Positions 3,336 to 61,579 of a stretch of 64,000 nt of DNA are shown here, in pieces. The stretch is from TPA_inf: Saccharomyces (taxonomy: Eukaryota). Location: contig BK006943.2 of the NCBI GenBank assembly GCA_000146045.2, forward strand, positions 288,001 to 352,000, given 5' to 3'. The stretch's first letter is position 1. Every line of letters begins with the position of its first letter. The notes below the pieces were generated by a model. It saw nothing but the letters and a program-made list of their open reading frames with translations, was not told the DNA's origin and searched no databases. A program made the translations under genes and the position numbers.

Positions 3336-5981
3336 CTAGAAGGCGAACAGAACAGCTACGACAAAAGCGGCAATCGTTCCAGCTAGACTATTGCACTGGA
3401 AAATGGAAAGAGGTGTTGCAGCACCTTCGTATGCAGAAAGTTTTGCGGTGGTTGATGTGCCTTCTTTTAGTTGAGTGTAGATCGAGGAAGTTGGCTGATG
3501 CATGGCAGACCCGTCTTGTTGGCTGGTAGTTGAACGACCGTTGCTACCAGTAGTTGTTCTTGCACCTAGGCTTGTGCTGGAGGGCTTGGCATACAGTGTA
3601 GCAACAGTCTGTTGGTAGGTTGTTGTTGTGGAAGAGGTGCCTTCGTTTGAGGTGGATTTGACAGAAGTGGGCTCGTTTGGCTTTTCAGATGTGGCGAAAT
3701 CGCTAGCGAGAGAAGATGTTTCTCCGGGGTTAATGATAGTTGCGGCGTTGACTTCAGTGTAGATACTAGAAAAGGCAGTGTCATCATTTTCTAGACAAGT
3801 GGTTGTAGTTGAAGGGAAAGAAGAAGCTGGAACCACCGTGTTGGTTTTCATAGGCGATGTGGTTAGCTCACTGGTTTGGGTTGAGGCGCCGTTCAAAGTG
3901 CTACAAGATGTCGAGATTGTTCTAGTGAAGGCCGTCTCATCTGTAGAAGAAGCAGCGGAGGTAGGGAAATTACTATCCGTACTACAAGAAGCTGTGATGG
4001 TGTTTGTGATCAGATTGCTTTCAGTGGTGGTGGCAGTGGAGATGGCGAAGCTAGGACTATCGGAATAATCGCTCTCGGAAGTGCAGGTAGAGACTAACTG
4101 TGTGGTGTTGCTTGAGACACTAATACTGGTGGTTGTGCGTAAGCTATCTAAAGATGCGCCTGTGGAAGAAGATCCATATGTAGAGGTGTGTTTAGCATTG
4201 TCGGTTGGACTAGCTGAGTTGTCGGTAGGGTCCAATGTGGGATCTATGGTTACTGCGGTAGCTGCCCTTGTGGAGTTGTTAGCAGTAGTGGCCAAGGTTG
4301 TAGTACTCTTAGTAATGGCTGTGATGGTTGTGGTACTCGAATTTTCTAAAGTTGTGGTCTTCACGATACTAGAGCAATTTGTAGCAGGCACAGATGTGGC
4401 AAGCGCAGAGGATTGCTCGGATGTAATGGCGTATTCGGCAGCGTATGTTACACCGTGTCCTGACACAGAAGCACTGTTGGAGTAAATGCTACTCGATGTG
4501 GCGGCACTGTTACTAATATTCTTCTCTGTTGAACTTGAAGCCTGAGCAGTTTCCGAAGTGATACTTTCTGAGGCGGTTACTGAAGTGGTGGCGGTGTCCT
4601 TTGTGGTATGGGCTGTGCTACTAACTGAGGTTACAGATACGTCGGTGTTGACGGCTATAACGGAATTCAGAACAGATTGCGACACAGCTGAGGAAGAGAC
4701 GGCCCCGGAAGAACTTCTGGAAGATGACCCAAGTCTCGTTGCATATTGGGCAGCATTAGTTGCACTAGTTACTATACTAGTATGTTCGGAAACTGAGCTT
4801 GTGGCCTCCTTGGAAGTGCTACCCTGAATATCGTCAGCAGCTACAGATGATGATAATGAGGCGCTTACAGAAGAGGTTGTTTGAGCAGAAAACACAGTTG
4901 TGTTTGCAAACTTAACAGAATTAACTGAATTGGAAGTTACACTTCTGGAGCTTGCGGTGGAAGTAGTAAGAGTACTACTCAAAGGAGCAGAAACCATTGA
5001 TGAAGAGCTCGAGATGGCGCTGCTAGAAGAAGCGGCGTTCTCGGTACTCGCGCTGGAGGAAGCGGCAGCGGAACTTGAGGCAGGATCAGAAGAAGAAGCA
5101 GCAGCAGTGCTCGAGGTAGGGTCGGAAGAAGTGGTACTGGACGATGTAGCAACCGATGAGGTGGTGGTAGTGGATGAAGTAGCATCACTAGAGACGACGG
5201 TACTCGAGGAGGTAGCATAGGAAGTAGTGACAGAAGAGCTTGAGGCTGATGAGACAGTGGAGGATCCAACTGATTCTGTGCTACTAGTAATTACGGTAGA
5301 AGAGGACGCAGTGAGGGTAGCGGTCTTGGCAGGGTTTATGGTCGTCGATTTTAAAGAACTGCTGCTAGCCGCAGACGATACCGTTGTTGTATACCCTTGC
5401 GCTACAGCGGGCATAATACTGGATGAGATGGTGGAGACTGTGTCTGATGTAGTTGAGGTAGAAGAGGACGAGGATGAGGACGAGGAAACAGTGCTTATAA
5501 GTGGTTCCACTTCCTCTGCAAACTCACCCAGGTAGTTTCCAGGAGGGTTGTAGGAGCACACAATATAATTGTTCCATGTCGTACCACAATATTTATAACC
5601 ACATCCAATCTCGGCGGTTGACTTCCAAACCACCTGTGTGAAGTGACCCGTGGATTCAGAAAATCCGGGATTTGAATAATTATACTTGCTTATCTCCCCG
5701 TACCAGGCGTCCACCGCTCCCGTGTCTGTGTAACCAAGGGCAAGGTTCTCACCATATGGGCCATCGGAATGCGTTAAGACACCCGAACAATCATATTGGT
5801 CGGCGTAGTTCTGCGCATAGGTGGCCAGAGTGTCGGACCAGGTGAGCGGCGCTGTGTCAACATGTAGCGCTCTGAACTTGTTATGCTCGTTCAGCACATC
5901 GCTCTCGAAGTTTGGAAACGTGGTTTGTGCCTTGACGGCTACTAGGCATCCTAGCAGAACTGATATTGGAAACTCCAGCAT
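3336..5981 (-). CDS. PRY3: Pry3, cell-wall CAP-family protein (881 aa). N-terminal signal peptide and CAP domain, long Ser/Thr-rich region, hydrophobic C-terminus consistent with a GPI signal.
   Basis: An 881-aa ORF. The N-terminal CAP motifs (HNKFRALH, GHFTQVVWKST, GCGYKYC, YIVCSY) are paralogous to PRY1. About 700 aa of S/T/A low complexity follows. The C-terminal tail ...SLAGTIAAFVVAVLFAF is hydrophobic. Confidence 0.9.
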   Translation of the reverse strand: MLEFPISVLLGCLVAVKAQTTFPNFESDVLNEHNKFRALHVDTAPLTWSDTLATYAQNYADQYDCSGVLTHSDGPYGENLALGYTDTGAVDAWYGEISKYNYSNPGFSESTGHFTQVVWKSTAEIGCGYKYCGTTWNNYIVCSYNPPGNYLGEFAEEVEPLISTVSSSSSSSSSTSTTSDTVSTISSSIMPAVAQGYTTTVSSAASSSSLKSTTINPAKTATLTASSSTVITSSTESVGSSTVSSASSSSVTTSYATSSSTVVSSDATSSTTTTSSVATSSSTTSSDPTSSTAAASSSDPASSSAAASSSASTENAASSSSAISSSSSMVSAPLSSTLTTSTASSRSVTSNSVNSVKFANTTVFSAQTTSSVSASLSSSVAADDIQGSTSKEATSSVSEHTSIVTSATNAAQYATRLGSSSRSSSGAVSSSAVSQSVLNSVIAVNTDVSVTSVSSTAHTTKDTATTSVTASESITSETAQASSSTEKNISNSAATSSSIYSNSASVSGHGVTYAAEYAITSEQSSALATSVPATNCSSIVKTTTLENSSTTTITAITKSTTTLATTANNSTRAATAVTIDPTLDPTDNSASPTDNAKHTSTYGSSSTGASLDSLRTTTSISVSSNTTQLVSTCTSESDYSDSPSFAISTATTTESNLITNTITASCSTDSNFPTSAASSTDETAFTRTISTSCSTLNGASTQTSELTTSPMKTNTVVPASSFPSTTTTCLENDDTAFSSIYTEVNAATIINPGETSSLASDFATSEKPNEPTSVKSTSNEGTSSTTTTYQQTVATLYAKPSSTSLGARTTTGSNGRSTTSQQDGSAMHQPTSSIYTQLKEGTSTTAKLSAYEGAATPLSIFQCNSLAGTIAAFVVAVLFAF
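4950..5230 (-). repeat. Imperfect intragenic tandem repeats inside PRY3 encoding SSS(D)P(A/T)SS(T/S)AAASS-type units.
   Basis: DNA-level near-repeats occur such as GGATCAGAAGAAGAAGCAGCAGCAGTGCTCGAGG and GGTCGGAAGAAGTGGTACTGGACGATGTAGCAACCGATGAGG. The encoded protein shows SSTTSSDPTSSTAAASSSDPASSSAAASSSAST. Confidence 0.6.
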
Positions 5982-6665
5982 AAGCGTTTTCGTTTTAAGT
6001 TGTTTTAAGTTGTTTGGAGTTGCAGGGGTGCAGCAATTATAATTTTATGCCGATATTGGTTTGGCAACTACCGAAAAGCAAGAAGCTAAAAACTTTGAAG
6101 TATAGAATATGTTTTAGAGAATTCTTCGACCGAGTTGAAACATGAGAACTGTTTCATCGGCCCTATATAGCAATTACATCCTTCCGTTGCTGGGTCCCTG
6201 CCTAGATACCATATTTGTTGTTGAATTAACCGCGGGAACCCGCAATATACGAAAGACGAACACAAGAGAGCAAGCACACACAGCTAGTGCGTAGCGTTGC
6301 TAGCTATATTGCCATGGTACCTACCTTTCACCTCCTTGTTAAATCCATAAGTGGACGGTTTTCCTAAACCAGTATTTATCAGTTCTCGAGCACGCAGAGA
6401 AAAGTAAACGAAGCGACCTGCATTGCGGTAACTATAAACACCCAGCCGCCTCCAGCAGAACCAGCCATGTGCGAAGAAAAACAATTTTTCGGCCAAACTT
6501 ACCAACAATAGCGACGCGTTCCTCACATCGTTGGGTTTTTTTCGCCTCTCTTCAAGTTTCCTATACCCGAGCTTAACACAACACAACGGACCCTCTTAAT
6601 TAGAGGTATCCTCCGTTCTTTTCTTCCGCTTTCCTAATCGAGATACCAGAGCACGGAACAGGACC

Positions 6666-7061
6666 CTAGTGCATCGGAGAGGAGATCCGTGGCACGCTCA
6701 CTGCGCCTTTCACTATCACCGATTTCGTAATTCGAACAGGAGTATTTCGCTGCAGGGGAATTACTGTTTGTAGACGAGGGAAAGCAATTATCAGATACAT
6801 GCCAGGGATAGCGTTCAAGGGGAAAGACATGGTTAAGGCAATACAGTTTTTAGAAATAGTCGTTCCTTGCCACTGTACGACCTGAACTTTACTCAACGAA
6901 AAAAAAATTGGAAAAAAAATAGTGCATAACGTTGCTATTAACAGATGTAGTACTGATATGTCCCTGATTGGTGAAGAGTCAGAATGATATAAGCCTATTT
7001 GATATGTACGTGTACGTATTCGAAAATAAGATTTGTTTCTCGTAGGGAGCGATATGTGCAT
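6666..7061 (-). CDS. ICS3: Small protein of unknown function (131 aa), taken from the internal Met MHISLPTRNK... of the 152-aa track ORF.
   Basis: The track ORF 6666..7124 (-) occupies the position of ICS3, between PRY3 and NET1 in chromosome X order. The trimmed length is 131 codons plus stop. I see no domain signal, so the call rests on position and length only. Confidence 0.45.
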   Translation of the reverse strand: MHISLPTRNKSYFRIRTRTYQIGLYHSDSSPIRDISVLHLLIATLCTIFFPIFFSLSKVQVVQWQGTTISKNCIALTMSFPLNAIPGMYLIIAFPRLQTVIPLQRNTPVRITKSVIVKGAVSVPRISSPMH

Positions 7062-7244
7062 TATGTTACCCGTTCCACATGTTTTGAACTTTTTTTCTTT
7101 TTCATGGTAAGCGTCAATAATCAATTTGAATAACTAGTGAAGAGTAGCTAGCACGATGAAATAAGTGCCGGAGCTGATCGAATCCCTAGTCTCGGTTCGC
7201 CTGAAACAGAGAGAAGTCGATTACTGTACACCGTGCCTCCTTCT

Positions 7245-10200
7245 ATGTACAAGCTACAAGTGGTCTTGGTGCCTCCGAGTCTTCAGGCGACGATGCCAAT
7301 ACAGTTTGGCTACGGACCAACCATCGCCGAATCTTCTCAATTGTTGCCAAACAGAACTAATATGGCGCAAAGCGCCGGAGATGCCTCTTTGCAGTATGCT
7401 AATCTGAGATCTGCCAATGTGAGTTTCACGCCAAGCTATTTCAACCAGTCTAGGTTTAGGAAGTTTCTTTTGTTTACCAAGCCGACAAACACGCTGTTGA
7501 ACTTGAGTGATGAAATCATCGATAAGTGTGAAAAAATGTACCCGAGTTTGCAAGAAGACATTGAAATTTTGAGTTTGCAAGATAACAGCGGTTGTGACCT
7601 TGATCCGGATTTTTTGGTAAAGGACGTTTTCAATGTAAATAATATCGTAAGAGTTATATTGAAGAATGAGATAGATCTGGACGATTCCGCACCAGTGTCA
7701 CTTTATAAGTCGGTAAAACGATCCAAGTTGAACAACGGGTCGCCCCAGTCGGTGCAGCCGCAACAACAAATCCCGTCCTCTTCAGGTGTTCTTCGGATTG
7801 CCAAGAAGAGGCCACCTACAGGAACCACGACAACAACAACCATTCGTAGTGCCACTAATGGATCCATGAGGGTTTCTACCCCATTGGCTAGGCAAATTTA
7901 TCCTCCACCTTCTTCGAAGATCGTCTCCAACAACTCAGATGACGAAGACGAAGACATTGGTGAAAGATCCTTTTTGCCGCCTCCAACGCAGCCTCAGTCA
8001 CCTCCCATAAGAATTAGTTCGGGCATTGACGCAGGTAAAAAAATAAAATCAAGCATCGTCGAGGAAGATATCGTGTCCAGATCAGCAACCGTGGATCCAG
8101 ATAAAACAAAGCAGCAACGTCTATTGTCCGGAACTCCTATAATGTCCACCATGACTCCAAACAGAGTTACTCTTACCGGTCAGAGAGTGGTTTCTGAACA
8201 CGCACATAAAAACGAATTGGTTTTCTCTGCTTCAGCTTCTTCCTCTTCATTTGCTAATGGTGGCACAGCTGCTGTCACTGCTCAGGACATTAATAGGAAA
8301 CCACCCGTAACCACTCCAAGAATAACATCAGGAATGTTGAAAATCCCCGAGCCAAGAATCTCAGAGATTGAAAAAGAGTTAAAAGAGGGACCTTCCAGTC
8401 CGGCCTCCATTTTACCCGCTAAAGCTGCAAAGATTCCAATGAAAAAACCTTACTTGGAAAATGGCGAGAACTACGAATCCGACGATAGCTCAAGTAGCGA
8501 AAACCAAGAAACTCCTGAAACAGAACCACATTCAAAGGCTTCCTTGCAACGTAGTCAAAGCTCCATCGCAGATAATAATGGCTCTCCGGTGAAAAATAGT
8601 CCTCTCGGTGATGCCATGCCACACAATGTGCATTTAGCAGAACTTCCCAAGGCAAGCAATACCTCGATCACCAAATCTTCAAATGGCGAATCCTGGGGAA
8701 AGCAACAAGAACATCAACCACCAAGAAAGAGTTCACTGGAAACTATAGTGGAAAAGAAATCTCAGGCGGAACCTTCCGGTATTGTGGAACCGAAAAGAAT
8801 GACTAATTTCCTAGATGATAATCAGGTAAGAGAAAAAGAAGATACGAATGATAAACTTTTAGAAAAGGAAATTTTGCCGACAATTCCACATAATGATCAG
8901 CCAATACTTGCATCATCTGATAAGTCTAATGGGACGTTGAAATCACTAGCTGGGAAAGTTAGTTCAAACAACAACGCTTCAAAGGAAGATGGCACTATCA
9001 TTAACGGCACCATTGAGGACGATGGCAATGATAATGATGAAGTTGATACTACGGTTCGTATTGTTCCTCAAGATTCAGATTCCTCTAGTTTCCCAAAGTC
9101 AGATCTTTTCAAAATGATCGAAGGTGATGATACAGATCTACCGCAATGGTTTAAGGGCAAAAATTCGAGAACTTCCGGTAATTCCAAAAATTCAAAGCCT
9201 TACACAACGGTTTTGAATAAAGACATAGACAATTCTAAGCCAGATCCAAGAAATATTTTGCCCCAGCGAACCCCAAGAAGTGCGGCTAAGAGGGCTGCCC
9301 AATTATTGGCAGGTGCCAAGAAAAACGAAGTCCCACAGAAAAGTACTGAAGATTCTAGTTCGGCAGCGTCCACAGACGATGAGTCAGAGAGTGGGATTGA
9401 AACAGATTTCTCATCAGACGATGATTTTAAAAGGAAAAATATGTCGGTGCCTAATAATGGGCCCAAAGACATTTCTTTACATTCTTTGAAAGGCAGTGTT
9501 GTTCCAGTGAAAGACTCAAAGATAATCAATAAAGAAGTTGATGAAGAAAGAAACGACAAAAGAGATAGTCAAAAAAAGTCAGCCGTGAGTGAATCTTCAG
9601 TAACAAATAGCAAAATAAGTGAACAAATGGCGAAAAGCTTTTATCCGAATTCAAACAAGAAGCAAAATGAAGCTACAAAGGTGGAAACTAAGCCAGCAAC
9701 ACAAGCATCGTCTTTTCCTGTTGTTGGTGGGTCTCCTTCTGTTGCTACTAAAGGAACTACCTCTTTCAATGAAGAAGGAAATCGTAAAAATGTTAAAACG
9801 AAGGCCAAGAATGAGTCTGCGCAGATTGATAGGCAGCAGAAGGAAACAACTTCTAGGGTTGCAGATTTGAAAAGCGCAAACATAGGAGGTGAAGACTTGA
9901 ACAAGAAAGCAGAGGGGTCCAAGGAACCAGAAAAAGCATCTGCCAATATACAGGATGCTAACGATAAAAATAACTCGAAGGAAAAAGAAGACTCCAAAAG
10001 CAAACAGGTATCTCAGAAAAAGTTAAAAATGACAGATCACTTAAAAGAAGGCAATGTTCAGCTTCCTAAGCCCAGTGCAAATGATAAATTGAAGGATTTG
10101 AAGGCTAAATTTACTAATAGTAAAACACTCGTGCCACCTGGAATAATTTCTAATGAAAAAAATAATTCTAGTGCAAACGATGATGATTCTAGCTCCTCAG

Positions 10201-38241: not shown

Positions 38242-39873
38242 CTATATACTCATTCTAATGCCTGCTAATAACTCTTCGATAATTCGTTGATTTCTATCAT
38301 TACTTTGAATGGTACTCAATATGCCAAAACACTGCAGTAATGTCAATTTATCTGTTTCTGTGACATTACTTTCTTCTTCTTGATTGAAAATGTAAAGTTG
38401 AAAACTTTTGCTGATACCATCGTTACTATTTACGAAGTTTTCATAACAAGGTAAGACTATTGAATCTCTAAAGCACATAAGCAAAAGAAACCCAATAGAA
38501 TAATTACCATTAATGTGAGTCCGACTTTCATTGCCTGACTTTAAAACCGTAGAATTACCATCTTCTCTGATACTCTGATCCAACGGTAATAACACAGCGG
38601 CTAAATCATAATATACCTCTTGATAAAATATCCGCCATATAACGCCTAATCTTTTCAATGCGTTATTTATTGTGTCTTCATTAGAATAGTTAAAAACAAT
38701 TTGGTTTTCTAAATTGTATAGGGAACTAACCAAAAATTCTTTCAAATCGCTGATAATTCTATTCATGCCGCTATGTGTGACTCTTGGATCTGTTTTTAAA
38801 ATGCAATAGAATTCTAAAACTTCGTTAAAATTTTCTATTTTGGCCCTGAGTTTCCATATTCTTTGAGTTCTGAATAATTCTGCTACGTTACTACAAAATA
38901 TATTCCAAATATTATTTGTTAGGGTTGTCAGTTCTTGGGAGTTGAAGTGTTTATAGTTAGCTTCCAGAGATGGTAAATTTCTTAAAAGGTCGTGTAACAT
39001 TGAGACCGGATTCGGTGAGGCAGGATCAGTTCCAGAAAGCGGATCCTCAACGATTGTGTTGGGATTGACACCAGATGGATTAACATTCAATGAGTACACA
39101 GAAGTTCCTGAGTCCACAAGTTGCCCCGCATTAGTATGAATAAATTGTGACGGAGATTTATGTCTTCCGTAAGAGGAATGCAGAAATTTACTCAAGGAAT
39201 TTGGAATTGCAGGCTCGATAGCATCTTGACCAATGTGCCTGTGGCTTTTATTTTGGAAAAAGTTCTTAATCACGTTTCGAAATGAATGTGAACTATTATG
39301 TAAGGTGCTTGAATCTGTCAAAAAGGAGGCAGGATCCGATGAAATGGTCGTATGTGCTCTGTTTCTCCTATTAAAAAAGCCAGAAGCCTTTCCTTTCATA
39401 TACCTGCCGGAGGGCGTGGAGTGTAAACTTTTCTGAGTAATGGATATTGCATCAGAAGATAACTTTTTAGATAGATTGTTCGAGCACTCCACCGTGTCAA
39501 CGCTATGAGATTCCCCTATCTGAGAAGAACCAGATTTAGATGTTGCAGCTGAGGCATTGTCATTGCTCCTCAAGGAATGATTTGAGGCCACACTGACCTT
39601 CGATCGAGGATGATCTACTGTATGGAATATGGATTGGAAGCCAACGTTAGAAACACTAGGGCTAATGGGGTTCCTCGAGCCCTTCAAATTCTTGATGGAA
39701 TAAACGTCATCATTTGATGTGTCTACAAGAGTTTGCCGGCTAATCTCGCTTGTAGTCTGAAAATTTTTTACTGGGGCTGTGGCTAATTGCACATTAAGGT
39801 ATTGTTCGCTATTGACAGGGCGTTGTGTCGTAGTAGATGTTCTTTCTCGAAGGAGTATATCTTCTGCTGTCAT
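38242..39873 (-). CDS. BIT61: Bit61, TORC2 subunit (543 aa).
   Basis: A 543-aa ORF with a Ser-rich N-terminal half and a helical C-terminal half. Position and length match. Confidence 0.75.
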   Translation of the reverse strand: MTAEDILLRERTSTTTQRPVNSEQYLNVQLATAPVKNFQTTSEISRQTLVDTSNDDVYSIKNLKGSRNPISPSVSNVGFQSIFHTVDHPRSKVSVASNHSLRSNDNASAATSKSGSSQIGESHSVDTVECSNNLSKKLSSDAISITQKSLHSTPSGRYMKGKASGFFNRRNRAHTTISSDPASFLTDSSTLHNSSHSFRNVIKNFFQNKSHRHIGQDAIEPAIPNSLSKFLHSSYGRHKSPSQFIHTNAGQLVDSGTSVYSLNVNPSGVNPNTIVEDPLSGTDPASPNPVSMLHDLLRNLPSLEANYKHFNSQELTTLTNNIWNIFCSNVAELFRTQRIWKLRAKIENFNEVLEFYCILKTDPRVTHSGMNRIISDLKEFLVSSLYNLENQIVFNYSNEDTINNALKRLGVIWRIFYQEVYYDLAAVLLPLDQSIREDGNSTVLKSGNESRTHINGNYSIGFLLLMCFRDSIVLPCYENFVNSNDGISKSFQLYIFNQEEESNVTETDKLTLLQCFGILSTIQSNDRNQRIIEELLAGIRMSI

Positions 39874-59446: not shown

Positions 59447-60637
59447 TTAATTGTTGCCGTTATTATTAGAGTAACCTAATGTACGAACTTTGGTATTAGA
59501 TGCAGAATTATTGGAAGACAAGTTTAGTTCAGACACGTTTTGTCGCAATTGAGAAGTACCATTAGAAGGATACATCCTTGGGGTAGTATATGCTGAAGGA
59601 GTCATTGAATCACCACCACCTCCTCCTCCCCCGTCCGACACCATGTCTAAGCTAGATAATTTTTGTAAAGAGTAGTTGGCGCTGTTTGACACATTTGTGC
59701 CCAACCTCTGGTAACCAAGACGGGAGGAGGAAGCATCTACTTCCGGTTCTTTCGCCCAAAAAGATGTCAAACCTGAGTAAACCTTGTGTAGAAGAGAAGA
59801 TTGTTCCATGTAGTCGAATGTTTTGTTATTGGCTTCCAGCGGTTCTAAGATGAGAGTCGATCTGGGCAACAGATCCAACTCTTGCAAACTTTTGAGTTCG
59901 TCATTTCGCGTAAGAGTCACTCTTGGTATATTTCTGTGGAAAAGGTAAGGTGTTCCATCATCGTAGCAATTATAGTCTAACCACATCCTTACTTTGTGTA
60001 ATTTTGTTTGAGGAGGGAAAGTATTAGAGATTGTGTAACCATTGGGCAGTTTCAATTGTAGAGTACAGTAGTTCTGGGCGAGAAACCCCTTTTGACTCTT
60101 GTAACTAACATTATCAGTAACTGTCAACTGCTTCCACTTCTGTGGCTTTCTTTGCGGGTCATTAGTATTTTGAAAAACATACTTCCTCTCCAACTTGTCG
60201 TTCTGAATCATTCTTTTGACTCTTTGATATTCTTCATTGCTCTTGGAAAATAACTTCCTCTTTGTTACTTGACCCTTAAAGACTGATTGTAACCCATTGA
60301 TAAAGGTTTCCCAAGGATCCTGCTCACGAGAAAGGCTATTACCTTGGATAGAACATTCGAGTAGACCGTTCTGTAATATGTTAATGCTTGGCGCCGATGA
60401 GGAGGGGAAAATGCTCTTGAAAAGCAAGCACTCTTTAGTACCATTTACTAACCTTACCCACAGTATGTTTTCGCGCTCCTCGTCACTAAGATTTCCTGGT
60501 TTGAACCACTGATGAAGCCAAGAATTGTCCCCGGCTGCTGAACTAATGTAAACGACGATAACCTGCTCACTAGTATGAGAGTAATCATGAACAACTCGAT
60601 CATGAAAGAGGCTGTCTATACCTGACATCTCGTACAT
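59447..60637 (-). CDS. UBX6: Ubx6, UBX-domain Cdc48 cofactor (396 aa).
   Basis: A 396-aa ORF. Its central region has a UBX-like ubiquitin fold ([15 protein letters not shown]...[25 protein letters not shown]). Convergent with CHM7. Confidence 0.75.
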
Positions 60638-61127
60638 TTCTGTTATTCAATACCTGTAATTCACTTCCTTTGAGGGTCAAAAATGTCCCCTGTAAGCAAG
60701 TGTATAAGTATATAATTATATATATGTGCATATATATGTCCCTATACAACTACTAACGAATCTTAAAAGTTGACTATTCATGTGGAAAAAGTCCCTCTTC
60801 TAGGGTTGACGCGCTAGAGGTAAATCCATTAAGGTTCCTCCTGGCTTCGTTAACTCCGAAAAGAATAGCATGTGCAAGATGAGTTACCGAAAGAAGCAAT
60901 AAAGAAAGCACGAGTACATGTAGAACAGGGGCACAGATAATACCAGACAGATGAGCCCACTTTTAAGAGTTTCAAAACTTCCACGAATGCACAGGGAGAA
61001 TAAAGTACGCGCTGGGTCCGTTACGATTCGTGCTGCAAGAGGTTTAAAATCGCTCCACAATGGTCTCGCCCCTCGGCCCTTCTCCAATTACAAGCATATT
61101 ACTAATACAGTTTTCGTTTCTTTTGTA

Positions 61128-61235
61128 ATGTTCAGATAGGAGCGAAAGACTAATTTCGATGGAAATTTTTATCTTCATTTCGATAGTATGTTCAATCAGT
61201 TGAACTATGCATCTTTGGTTATCATCATTAACAAA
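61128..61235 (-). ncRNA. SNR60: C/D-box snoRNA, probably snR60 (about 104-108 nt, 2'-O-methylation guide).
   Basis: The minus-strand RNA is UGUUAAUGAUGAUAACCAAAGAUGCAUAGUUCAACUGAUUGAACAUACUAUCGAAAUGAAGAUAAAAAUUUCCAUCGAAAUUAGUCUUUCGCUCCUAUCUGAACAUU. Box C AUGAUGA lies near the 5' end, an internal D' CUGA and C'-like UGAAGA follow, and box D CUGA lies near the 3' end. The flanking UUUGU / ACAAA can form the terminal stem. It is intergenic between UBX6 and RTT101. The snR60 identity comes from my memory of chrX and is not verified. Confidence 0.6.
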
Positions 61236-61579
61236 TTGAAACGAAAAGCTATCCTGCCAAGAAGGCCGGATAGAGAGATTGAAAAAGATATATAAAGTGT
61301 CCTTGTCACACTCATACAACACCTGTTGTATGTCAGGCATACGGCAAATTGACTACAGTTTGCATTTGCACTAATGTCGTTTGCAGTGTAACTGTTGTAT
61401 TGAACGTGGACAAGGACAAGAAAGATAGTTTTTATCTCTTGATGTTTTTTTATATGGAGGAGAAAGCGACGAAGTCGAAAAAAACGAAAGGAAATAAAAT
61501 GCTGTCGGAAAAAAAGTTAGGGCTGGTACGGATTATAAACTATCTCAGTAGTTAGGTAATATATAAGATGGCACCAGTC

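Follow-up and report, generated by a model that had tools for sequence, protein, structure and literature searches.

In box C/D small nucleolar RNAs (snoRNAs), the C/D and C'/D' box pairs form kink-turns, on which Snu13, Nop56, Nop58 and the methyltransferase Nop1, present twice, assemble. Immediately 5' of every D-type box lies a guide that base-pairs with pre-25S ribosomal RNA (rRNA); the rRNA nucleotide facing the fifth position of this guide then receives a 2'-O-methyl group from Nop1. In Saccharomyces cerevisiae, the snoRNA snR60 is the guide for Am817 and Gm908 of 25S rRNA (PMC5199042; PMC2806949), with the D guide directed to 908 and the D' guide to 817 (PMC5824354). Both sites are about 90-100% methylated (PMC5199042), and the equivalent modifications are present in human large subunit (LSU) rRNA (PMC5824354). 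The SNR60 gene has been annotated and studied experimentally since 1999 (PMC5824354), and its RNA has been detected by northern blot and by quantitative polymerase chain reaction on pre-ribosomes (PMC2806949 and a second paper). Here, we describe a box C/D snoRNA gene at 61126..61236 on the minus strand of a 64,000-nucleotide stretch of Saccharomyces DNA (assembly GCA_000146045.2, contig BK006943.2, positions 288,001 to 352,000), which is referred to in full as the window and to which the positions below belong. It is virtually certain that this locus is SNR60, the independently transcribed S. cerevisiae gene for snR60. It is SNR60 itself and not merely a relative, and since the gene was already known, no novelty attaches to the identification.

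A scan of the whole window against the 4,227 families of Rfam 15 returned a sole gathering-level match, to RF00309 (snosnR60_Z15, the family of snR60, Z15, Z230, Z193 and J17). The match runs over 61236..61126 on the minus strand and covers the full model (1-98 of 98 positions) with a score of 70.6 bits, against a gathering cut-off of 41 bits, and an E-value of 3.1e-10. A tRNA scan of the window found none. The original prediction, which named a C/D-box snoRNA, probably snR60, as the only supportable non-protein gene in the window, is therefore borne out on both counts. The limits given for the gene are those of the Rfam match rather than mapped mature ends; snR60 is about 105-110 nt long.

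Motifs were located by script on the minus strand, and the region 60900-61500 was also read directly. Box C (AUGAUGA, fitting RUGAUGA; 61228-61222) lies near the 5' end and aligns to the box C of the family. It is followed by box D' (CUGA; 61199-61196), box C' (AUGAAGA; 61178-61172, with its UGAAGA part at 61177-61172) and, near the 3' end, box D (CUGA; 61135-61132), all three of which are also placed by the Rfam alignment. The four boxes that had been predicted on this strand are thus all present at their places, in the order C, D', C', D that is canonical for a C/D snoRNA with an internal D'/C' pair. The terminal stem that was proposed with them, UUUGU/ACAAA, held up in part. Its bases are present (61235-61231 and 61126-61122) and folding allows them to pair, but the Rfam consensus uses the box-adjacent stem UGU/ACA instead (61233-61231 with 61131-61129; three of five Rfam consensus pairs). 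Both pairings are possible, and whether ACAAA belongs to the mature RNA depends on the position of the 3' end.

The guide regions connect the locus to its targets. The D guide, UAGUCUUUCGCUCCUAU (61152-61136), stands directly 5' of box D and the D' guide, GAUGCAUAGUUCAA (61213-61200), directly 5' of box D'. Pairing was tested on one complete ribosomal DNA (rDNA) unit of 6 kb, L064, in which the LSU gene occupies 4085-7422. Starting at guide position 1, the D guide pairs without interruption over 19 nt (one pair being G.U) with the LSU rRNA sequence AUAGGGGCGAAAGACUAAU, and the pairing extends over 61154-61136. The predicted duplex energy is -31.7 kcal/mol, and a run of this length was reached by none of 1,000 shuffled guides anywhere in the unit. 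The core of the D' guide, GCAUAGUUCA (61210-61201), forms 10 Watson-Crick pairs with the LSU rRNA sequence UGAACUAUGC from guide position 2, which is the best Watson-Crick run in the rDNA unit, the runner-up having 8. At the fifth nucleotide from box D, C61140 lies opposite a G at LSU position 902 of L064, while the fifth nucleotide from box D', U61204, lies opposite an A at position 811. The two rRNA nucleotides are exactly 91 nt apart, as are 908 and 817; the pairing, this spacing and the published targets together identify them as 25S G908 (D) and 25S A817 (D'). The expectation that each guide would show complementarity to LSU rRNA with the target 5 nt from the box was thereby confirmed, with at least 10 nt of complementarity 5' of both D-type boxes. 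The spacer preceding the D guide is predicted to add four pairs on the far side of a 2-nt bulge (the AUCGA region, about 61160-61157), which fit the extra pairing that has been reported for the snR60 spacer (PMC3116282).

The same pair of target sites recurs widely in environmental rDNA. A metagenome search pattern joined, in this order, the reverse complements of the D' core and of the D guide across a gap of 70-95 nt, the latter with one wobble-tolerant position, and it matched at least 120 contigs. Among the matches listed, the gap was exactly 80 nt in 120 of 121, which places the two +5 nucleotides 91 nt apart, and the target sites are conserved across eukaryotic LSU rRNA. All three of the matched loci that were tested with Rfam proved to be eukaryotic LSU rRNA, with small subunit (SSU) and 5.8S rRNA alongside. 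As a side observation, one environmental rDNA contig among those retrieved for the guide test (L103) carries two group I introns (RF00028) at 195-521 and 1933-2278, with scores of 68.5 and 65.3 bits; its LSU and SSU rRNA genes contain one each.

The position of the gene is likewise that of SNR60. The end of the snoRNA lies 489 nt upstream of the start of UBX6, on the same strand. UBX6 (59447-60637, minus strand) encodes a 396-aa (amino acid) protein with UBX7_N and UBX domains, whose nearest named homologue is Ubx6p of Saccharomyces paradoxus (91% identity). The gene on the other side, named RTT101 in the original prediction, encodes a protein of 842 aa with cullin domains. The window is part of S. 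cerevisiae chromosome X. An identical UBX6 protein is encoded on chromosome records at NCBI, which share the gene order of cullin (842 aa), UBX protein, Snf7-domain protein (450 aa) and MTR4-type helicase. In npl3-delta cells, SNR60 read-through is known to enter the downstream UBX6, and the order and orientation of the snoRNA and UBX6 in the window match this published arrangement, in keeping with the neighbour that had been predicted. Indeed, no difference was found between the locus and S. cerevisiae SNR60 of chromosome X, which lies between YJL047C and UBX6: the Rfam family, box order, guides, targets (Am817 for D', Gm908 for D), position and orientation upstream of UBX6, and overlap with the open reading frame (ORF) YJL047C-A are all the same.

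Comparison with other Saccharomyces shows that it is the RNA that has been conserved. Orthologous regions were retrieved via proteins predicted from an ORF of 98 aa that overlaps the snoRNA and via UBX6, for which the homologue search gave five proteins. The comparison covers Saccharomyces sensu stricto, comprising S. paradoxus, two S. uvarum strains (including L136 and L137), two other Saccharomyces assemblies and one partial locus; the sequences L128-L131 end too early on the upstream side to include the complete snoRNA. Six Saccharomyces sequences differ by a single substitution between boxes C and D, at a spacer base in L137, and each end of the Rfam interval has one variable position (61236 and 61128). 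This near-invariance stands in contrast to the upstream and far-downstream flanks, which diverge with insertions and deletions. In S. paradoxus, the same Rfam match is found at the syntenic place.

Nothing was found that contradicts the identification as SNR60, though a number of observations weigh on the other side. The fold of the whole RNA is no better than that of shuffled sequences (z -0.76), a common outcome for C/D snoRNAs. The short terminal stem consists wholly of bases that are invariant in the orthologues, such that neither pairing is supported by covariation. The numbers 817 and 908 come from the literature, the same sites being 811 and 902 in the rDNA locus used for the pairing tests. 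The D' pairing is also only modestly unusual in its own right: 52 of 2,000 shuffled guides reach 10 Watson-Crick pairs when the run is unanchored, and 623 of 1,000 reach a run of 10 once G.U pairs are allowed. Its weight comes from its anchoring next to box D', the exact 91-nt spacing and the literature. Finally, the promoter, Rnt1 and terminator steps proposed below were derived from motifs and conservation.

The alternative that survives best, although we consider it very improbable, is that the locus is, or also is, protein-coding. The 98-aa ORF (61044..61340, minus strand) exists as the original prediction described it, covering the snoRNA, and had been called spurious, a feature that could tempt a wrong protein call. 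What that prediction lacked is that its last 44 codons are the annotated ORF YJL047C-A (61178-61044, minus strand), which the literature lists as overlapping the C/D snoRNA snR60 and whose start codon is the AUG of box C'. Under the protein-coding alternative, the 98-aa ORF or YJL047C-A would be translated, for example from 3'-extended snR60 transcripts. The 98-aa ORF is uninterrupted in S. cerevisiae, S. paradoxus and L132, several assemblies, those of S. uvarum included, list it as a predicted gene, and its homologues reach 80-86% amino acid identity. That identity is, however, explained by the invariant snoRNA, which accounts for 37 codons, together with the conserved 3' flank. The ORF has no Pfam match at E <= 0.01, and its only relatives in the databases are the same ORF in Saccharomyces assemblies. 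Its N-terminal frame is not conserved: the ATG is missing in S. uvarum, a 1-nt insertion is present in L134, and two compensating 1-nt insertions or deletions recode about 19 residues in S. paradoxus and L132. Over the N-terminal 35 codons the variable sites fall 12/13/7 by codon position, without an excess at third positions. The 98-aa ORF is thus spurious, a by-product of the sequence rather than a gene, as had been predicted.

In favour of YJL047C-A, the 44-aa frame survives in four of seven sequences, and the variable sites in the 79 nt of ORF that lie 3' of the snoRNA lean towards the third codon position (3/3/8), which with very few sites is not significant (Fisher p = 0.06). Against it, 1-nt insertions disrupt the frame in L137 (S. 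uvarum) and L128, and in L136 the stop codon has shifted. Furthermore, the first 16 codons lie within the mature snoRNA, so that the ORF would be readable only from unprocessed precursor, and given the overlap listed in the literature, any apparent expression of YJL047C-A tracks snR60. Very probably, then, YJL047C-A is not a protein gene. In public assemblies, the ORF over SNR60 is annotated as a 98-aa protein in three records from S. cerevisiae strains (L002, L003 and L005; 2298-2594), while two others (L004 and L006) have a 44-aa gene call at the corresponding position. In S. uvarum, 'hypothetical proteins' of 78 aa (L136, 2501-2737) and 123 aa (L137, 2501-2872) are found, their lengths differing because of the frame shifts. 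The calls of 98, 78 and 123 aa look like annotation artefacts of a conserved RNA gene.

Two further explanations have next to nothing left in their favour. That the boxes are a chance arrangement in A+T-rich intergenic DNA, with no RNA gene at all, could appeal to their shortness (4-7 nt) and to the unremarkable fold already mentioned, but is refuted by the covariance model E-value of 3e-10, the 19-pair match of the D guide to LSU rRNA, the near-invariance of the Rfam interval (about 111 nt) between divergent flanks, and the published detection of the RNA. Nor is there appreciable likelihood that the RNA belongs to a different box C/D family, such as snR72 or snR78 of the fungal clan CD_5: RF00309 does share the Rfam clan CL00070 with related families, and snR60, snR72 and snR78 are placed in one clan linked by target switches (PMC5824354), but snR60 is the best family after clan competition, the targets are 817 (D') and 908 (D) rather than 876 (snR72) or 2421 (snR78), and the position upstream of UBX6 is that of SNR60.

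Like snR60, the CD_5 members snR72 and snR78 are box C/D guides for 25S methylation, to which it is linked by inferred target switches (PMC5824354); their targets, A876 and U2421, do not match the guides found here. The plant members of RF00309 (Z15, Z230, Z193 and J17), together with human SNORD80 and SNORD77, have the same box architecture, and the guide cores GCAUAGUUCA and GUCUUUCGCUCCUAU fall in conserved, upper-case columns of the family consensus. Three insertions set the yeast RNA apart from this consensus, of 4 nt following box C, 9 nt in the D'-C' interval and 3 nt within the second spacer. The plant and human counterparts are intronic or clustered, in contrast to the independent polymerase II gene of yeast.

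The sequence downstream of the snoRNA suggests how its 3' end may be formed. Across seven Saccharomyces sequences, the 47 nt just downstream of box D (61131-61085, minus strand) match the snoRNA itself in degree of conservation. GUAA (Nrd1) and CUUG (Nab3) are motifs of snoRNA terminators, and a motif search found Nrd1-type GUAA at 61102-61099 and 61091-61088 and Nab3-type CUUG at 61094-61091, with more GUAA and UCUUG motifs at 61040-61021, all on the minus strand. The npl3-delta read-through into UBX6 shows that termination normally takes place between the two genes. On the basis of its conservation and motifs, 61131-61085 is probably an Nrd1/Nab3 terminator and 3'-processing region.

On the 5' side, the presumed leader contains two hairpins. 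The first (61332-61313, minus strand), about 80-100 nt upstream of box C, has an 8-bp stem, CAUACAAC-AGGU-GUUGUAUG, that closes an AGNN tetraloop (61324-61321). AGNN is the signature recognised by the yeast RNase III, Rnt1. In five orthologous sequences the stem is invariant and the loop is AGGU or AGGC. snR60 has been reported as one of the new Rnt1p substrates in vitro (PMC4334505), and this hairpin is likely to be the Rnt1 recognition signal for snR60. Rnt1 cuts at a distance of 14-16 bp, which exceeds the length of the perfect stem of this hairpin, and a search for a convincing conserved lower stem below it found none.

The second hairpin, CUAUCCgGCC-UUCUU-GGCaGGAUAG (61273-61249, minus strand), is G+C-rich and ends 13 nt upstream of the start of the Rfam match. 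Each of the five orthologues tested also folds into a hairpin here, with predicted energies of -7.0 to -17.3 kcal/mol. In S. uvarum the stem is a different one (GACCCC/GGGGUU), and it lies out of register in the alignment, for which reason each sequence was folded alone. Compared with shuffled sequences, the S. uvarum hairpin is only marginally better in one strain (z -2.2; 5 of 200 shuffles equal it) and not exceptional in the other (z -1.4; 23 of 200). RNAalifold found zero compensatory pairs in the 5' leader, the AGNN stem being invariant.

Candidate promoter elements lie further upstream. In the interval from the cullin gene to the snoRNA, the strict TATA consensus occurs just once, as TATAAAAA (61454-61447, minus strand), a candidate core promoter whose TATA core is intact in all six sequences, those of S. 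uvarum having a G inside the A run. A nearer TATATAT (about 61296) is absent in S. uvarum. Beyond the distal TATA, AGCCCTAA followed by a T tract (61524-61517, minus strand) is conserved in six sequences and is a candidate Tbf1 site (ARCCCTAA). Such sites mark yeast snoRNA promoters, and Tbf1 is a primary factor of snoRNA genes in S. cerevisiae (Preti et al. 2010, as given in a paper citing it). With 3 occurrences against an expected 3.8, ARCCCTAA shows no enrichment in the window, which leaves conservation as the support for the Tbf1-type site. Two more Tbf1-type motifs, AACCCTAA, occur at 38919-38926 and 43752-43759 on the minus strand, a count at chance level. Since the distal TATA and the Tbf1-type site are conserved and the nearer TATATAT is not, the transcription start may lie far upstream of the mature 5' end. 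A scan of the intergenic region for sigma-70 promoters and intrinsic terminators gave counts not above those of shuffled sequence, with bacterial models that are inapplicable to yeast.

These features suggest the following route to a functional guide. SNR60 would be transcribed by RNA polymerase II from an upstream promoter containing the conserved TATAAAAA and the Tbf1-type ARCCCTAA with its T tract. The 5' leader would be removed after Rnt1 cleavage at the conserved AGNN hairpin, and the 3' end would be produced in the conserved 3' flank through Nrd1-Nab3-dependent termination and trimming by the exosome. By analogy with its class, the RNA would then assemble with the core proteins, its D guide directing methylation of G908 and its D' guide that of A817 in 25S rRNA. 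snR60 is almost wholly bound to pre-ribosomes, and its release depends on the helicases Prp43 and Dbp3 (PMC2806949 and a second paper).

Some room, albeit little, is left for new biology at this locus. It is improbable, but worth stating, that either the two 5'-leader hairpins (61332-61313 and 61273-61249) jointly constitute a processing or quality-control signal of snR60 that is new at nucleotide resolution, or YJL047C-A is translated from 3'-extended read-through transcripts. If true, either of these would refine the picture of a familiar gene without introducing an element of a new kind.

The significance of the locus as a discovery is small, and the main practical point concerns annotation. 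Several public Saccharomyces assemblies still list the 98-aa ORF over SNR60 as a protein, and protein databases carry it as a 'hypothetical protein'; the evidence presented here makes the 44-aa YJL047C-A doubtful as a protein gene.

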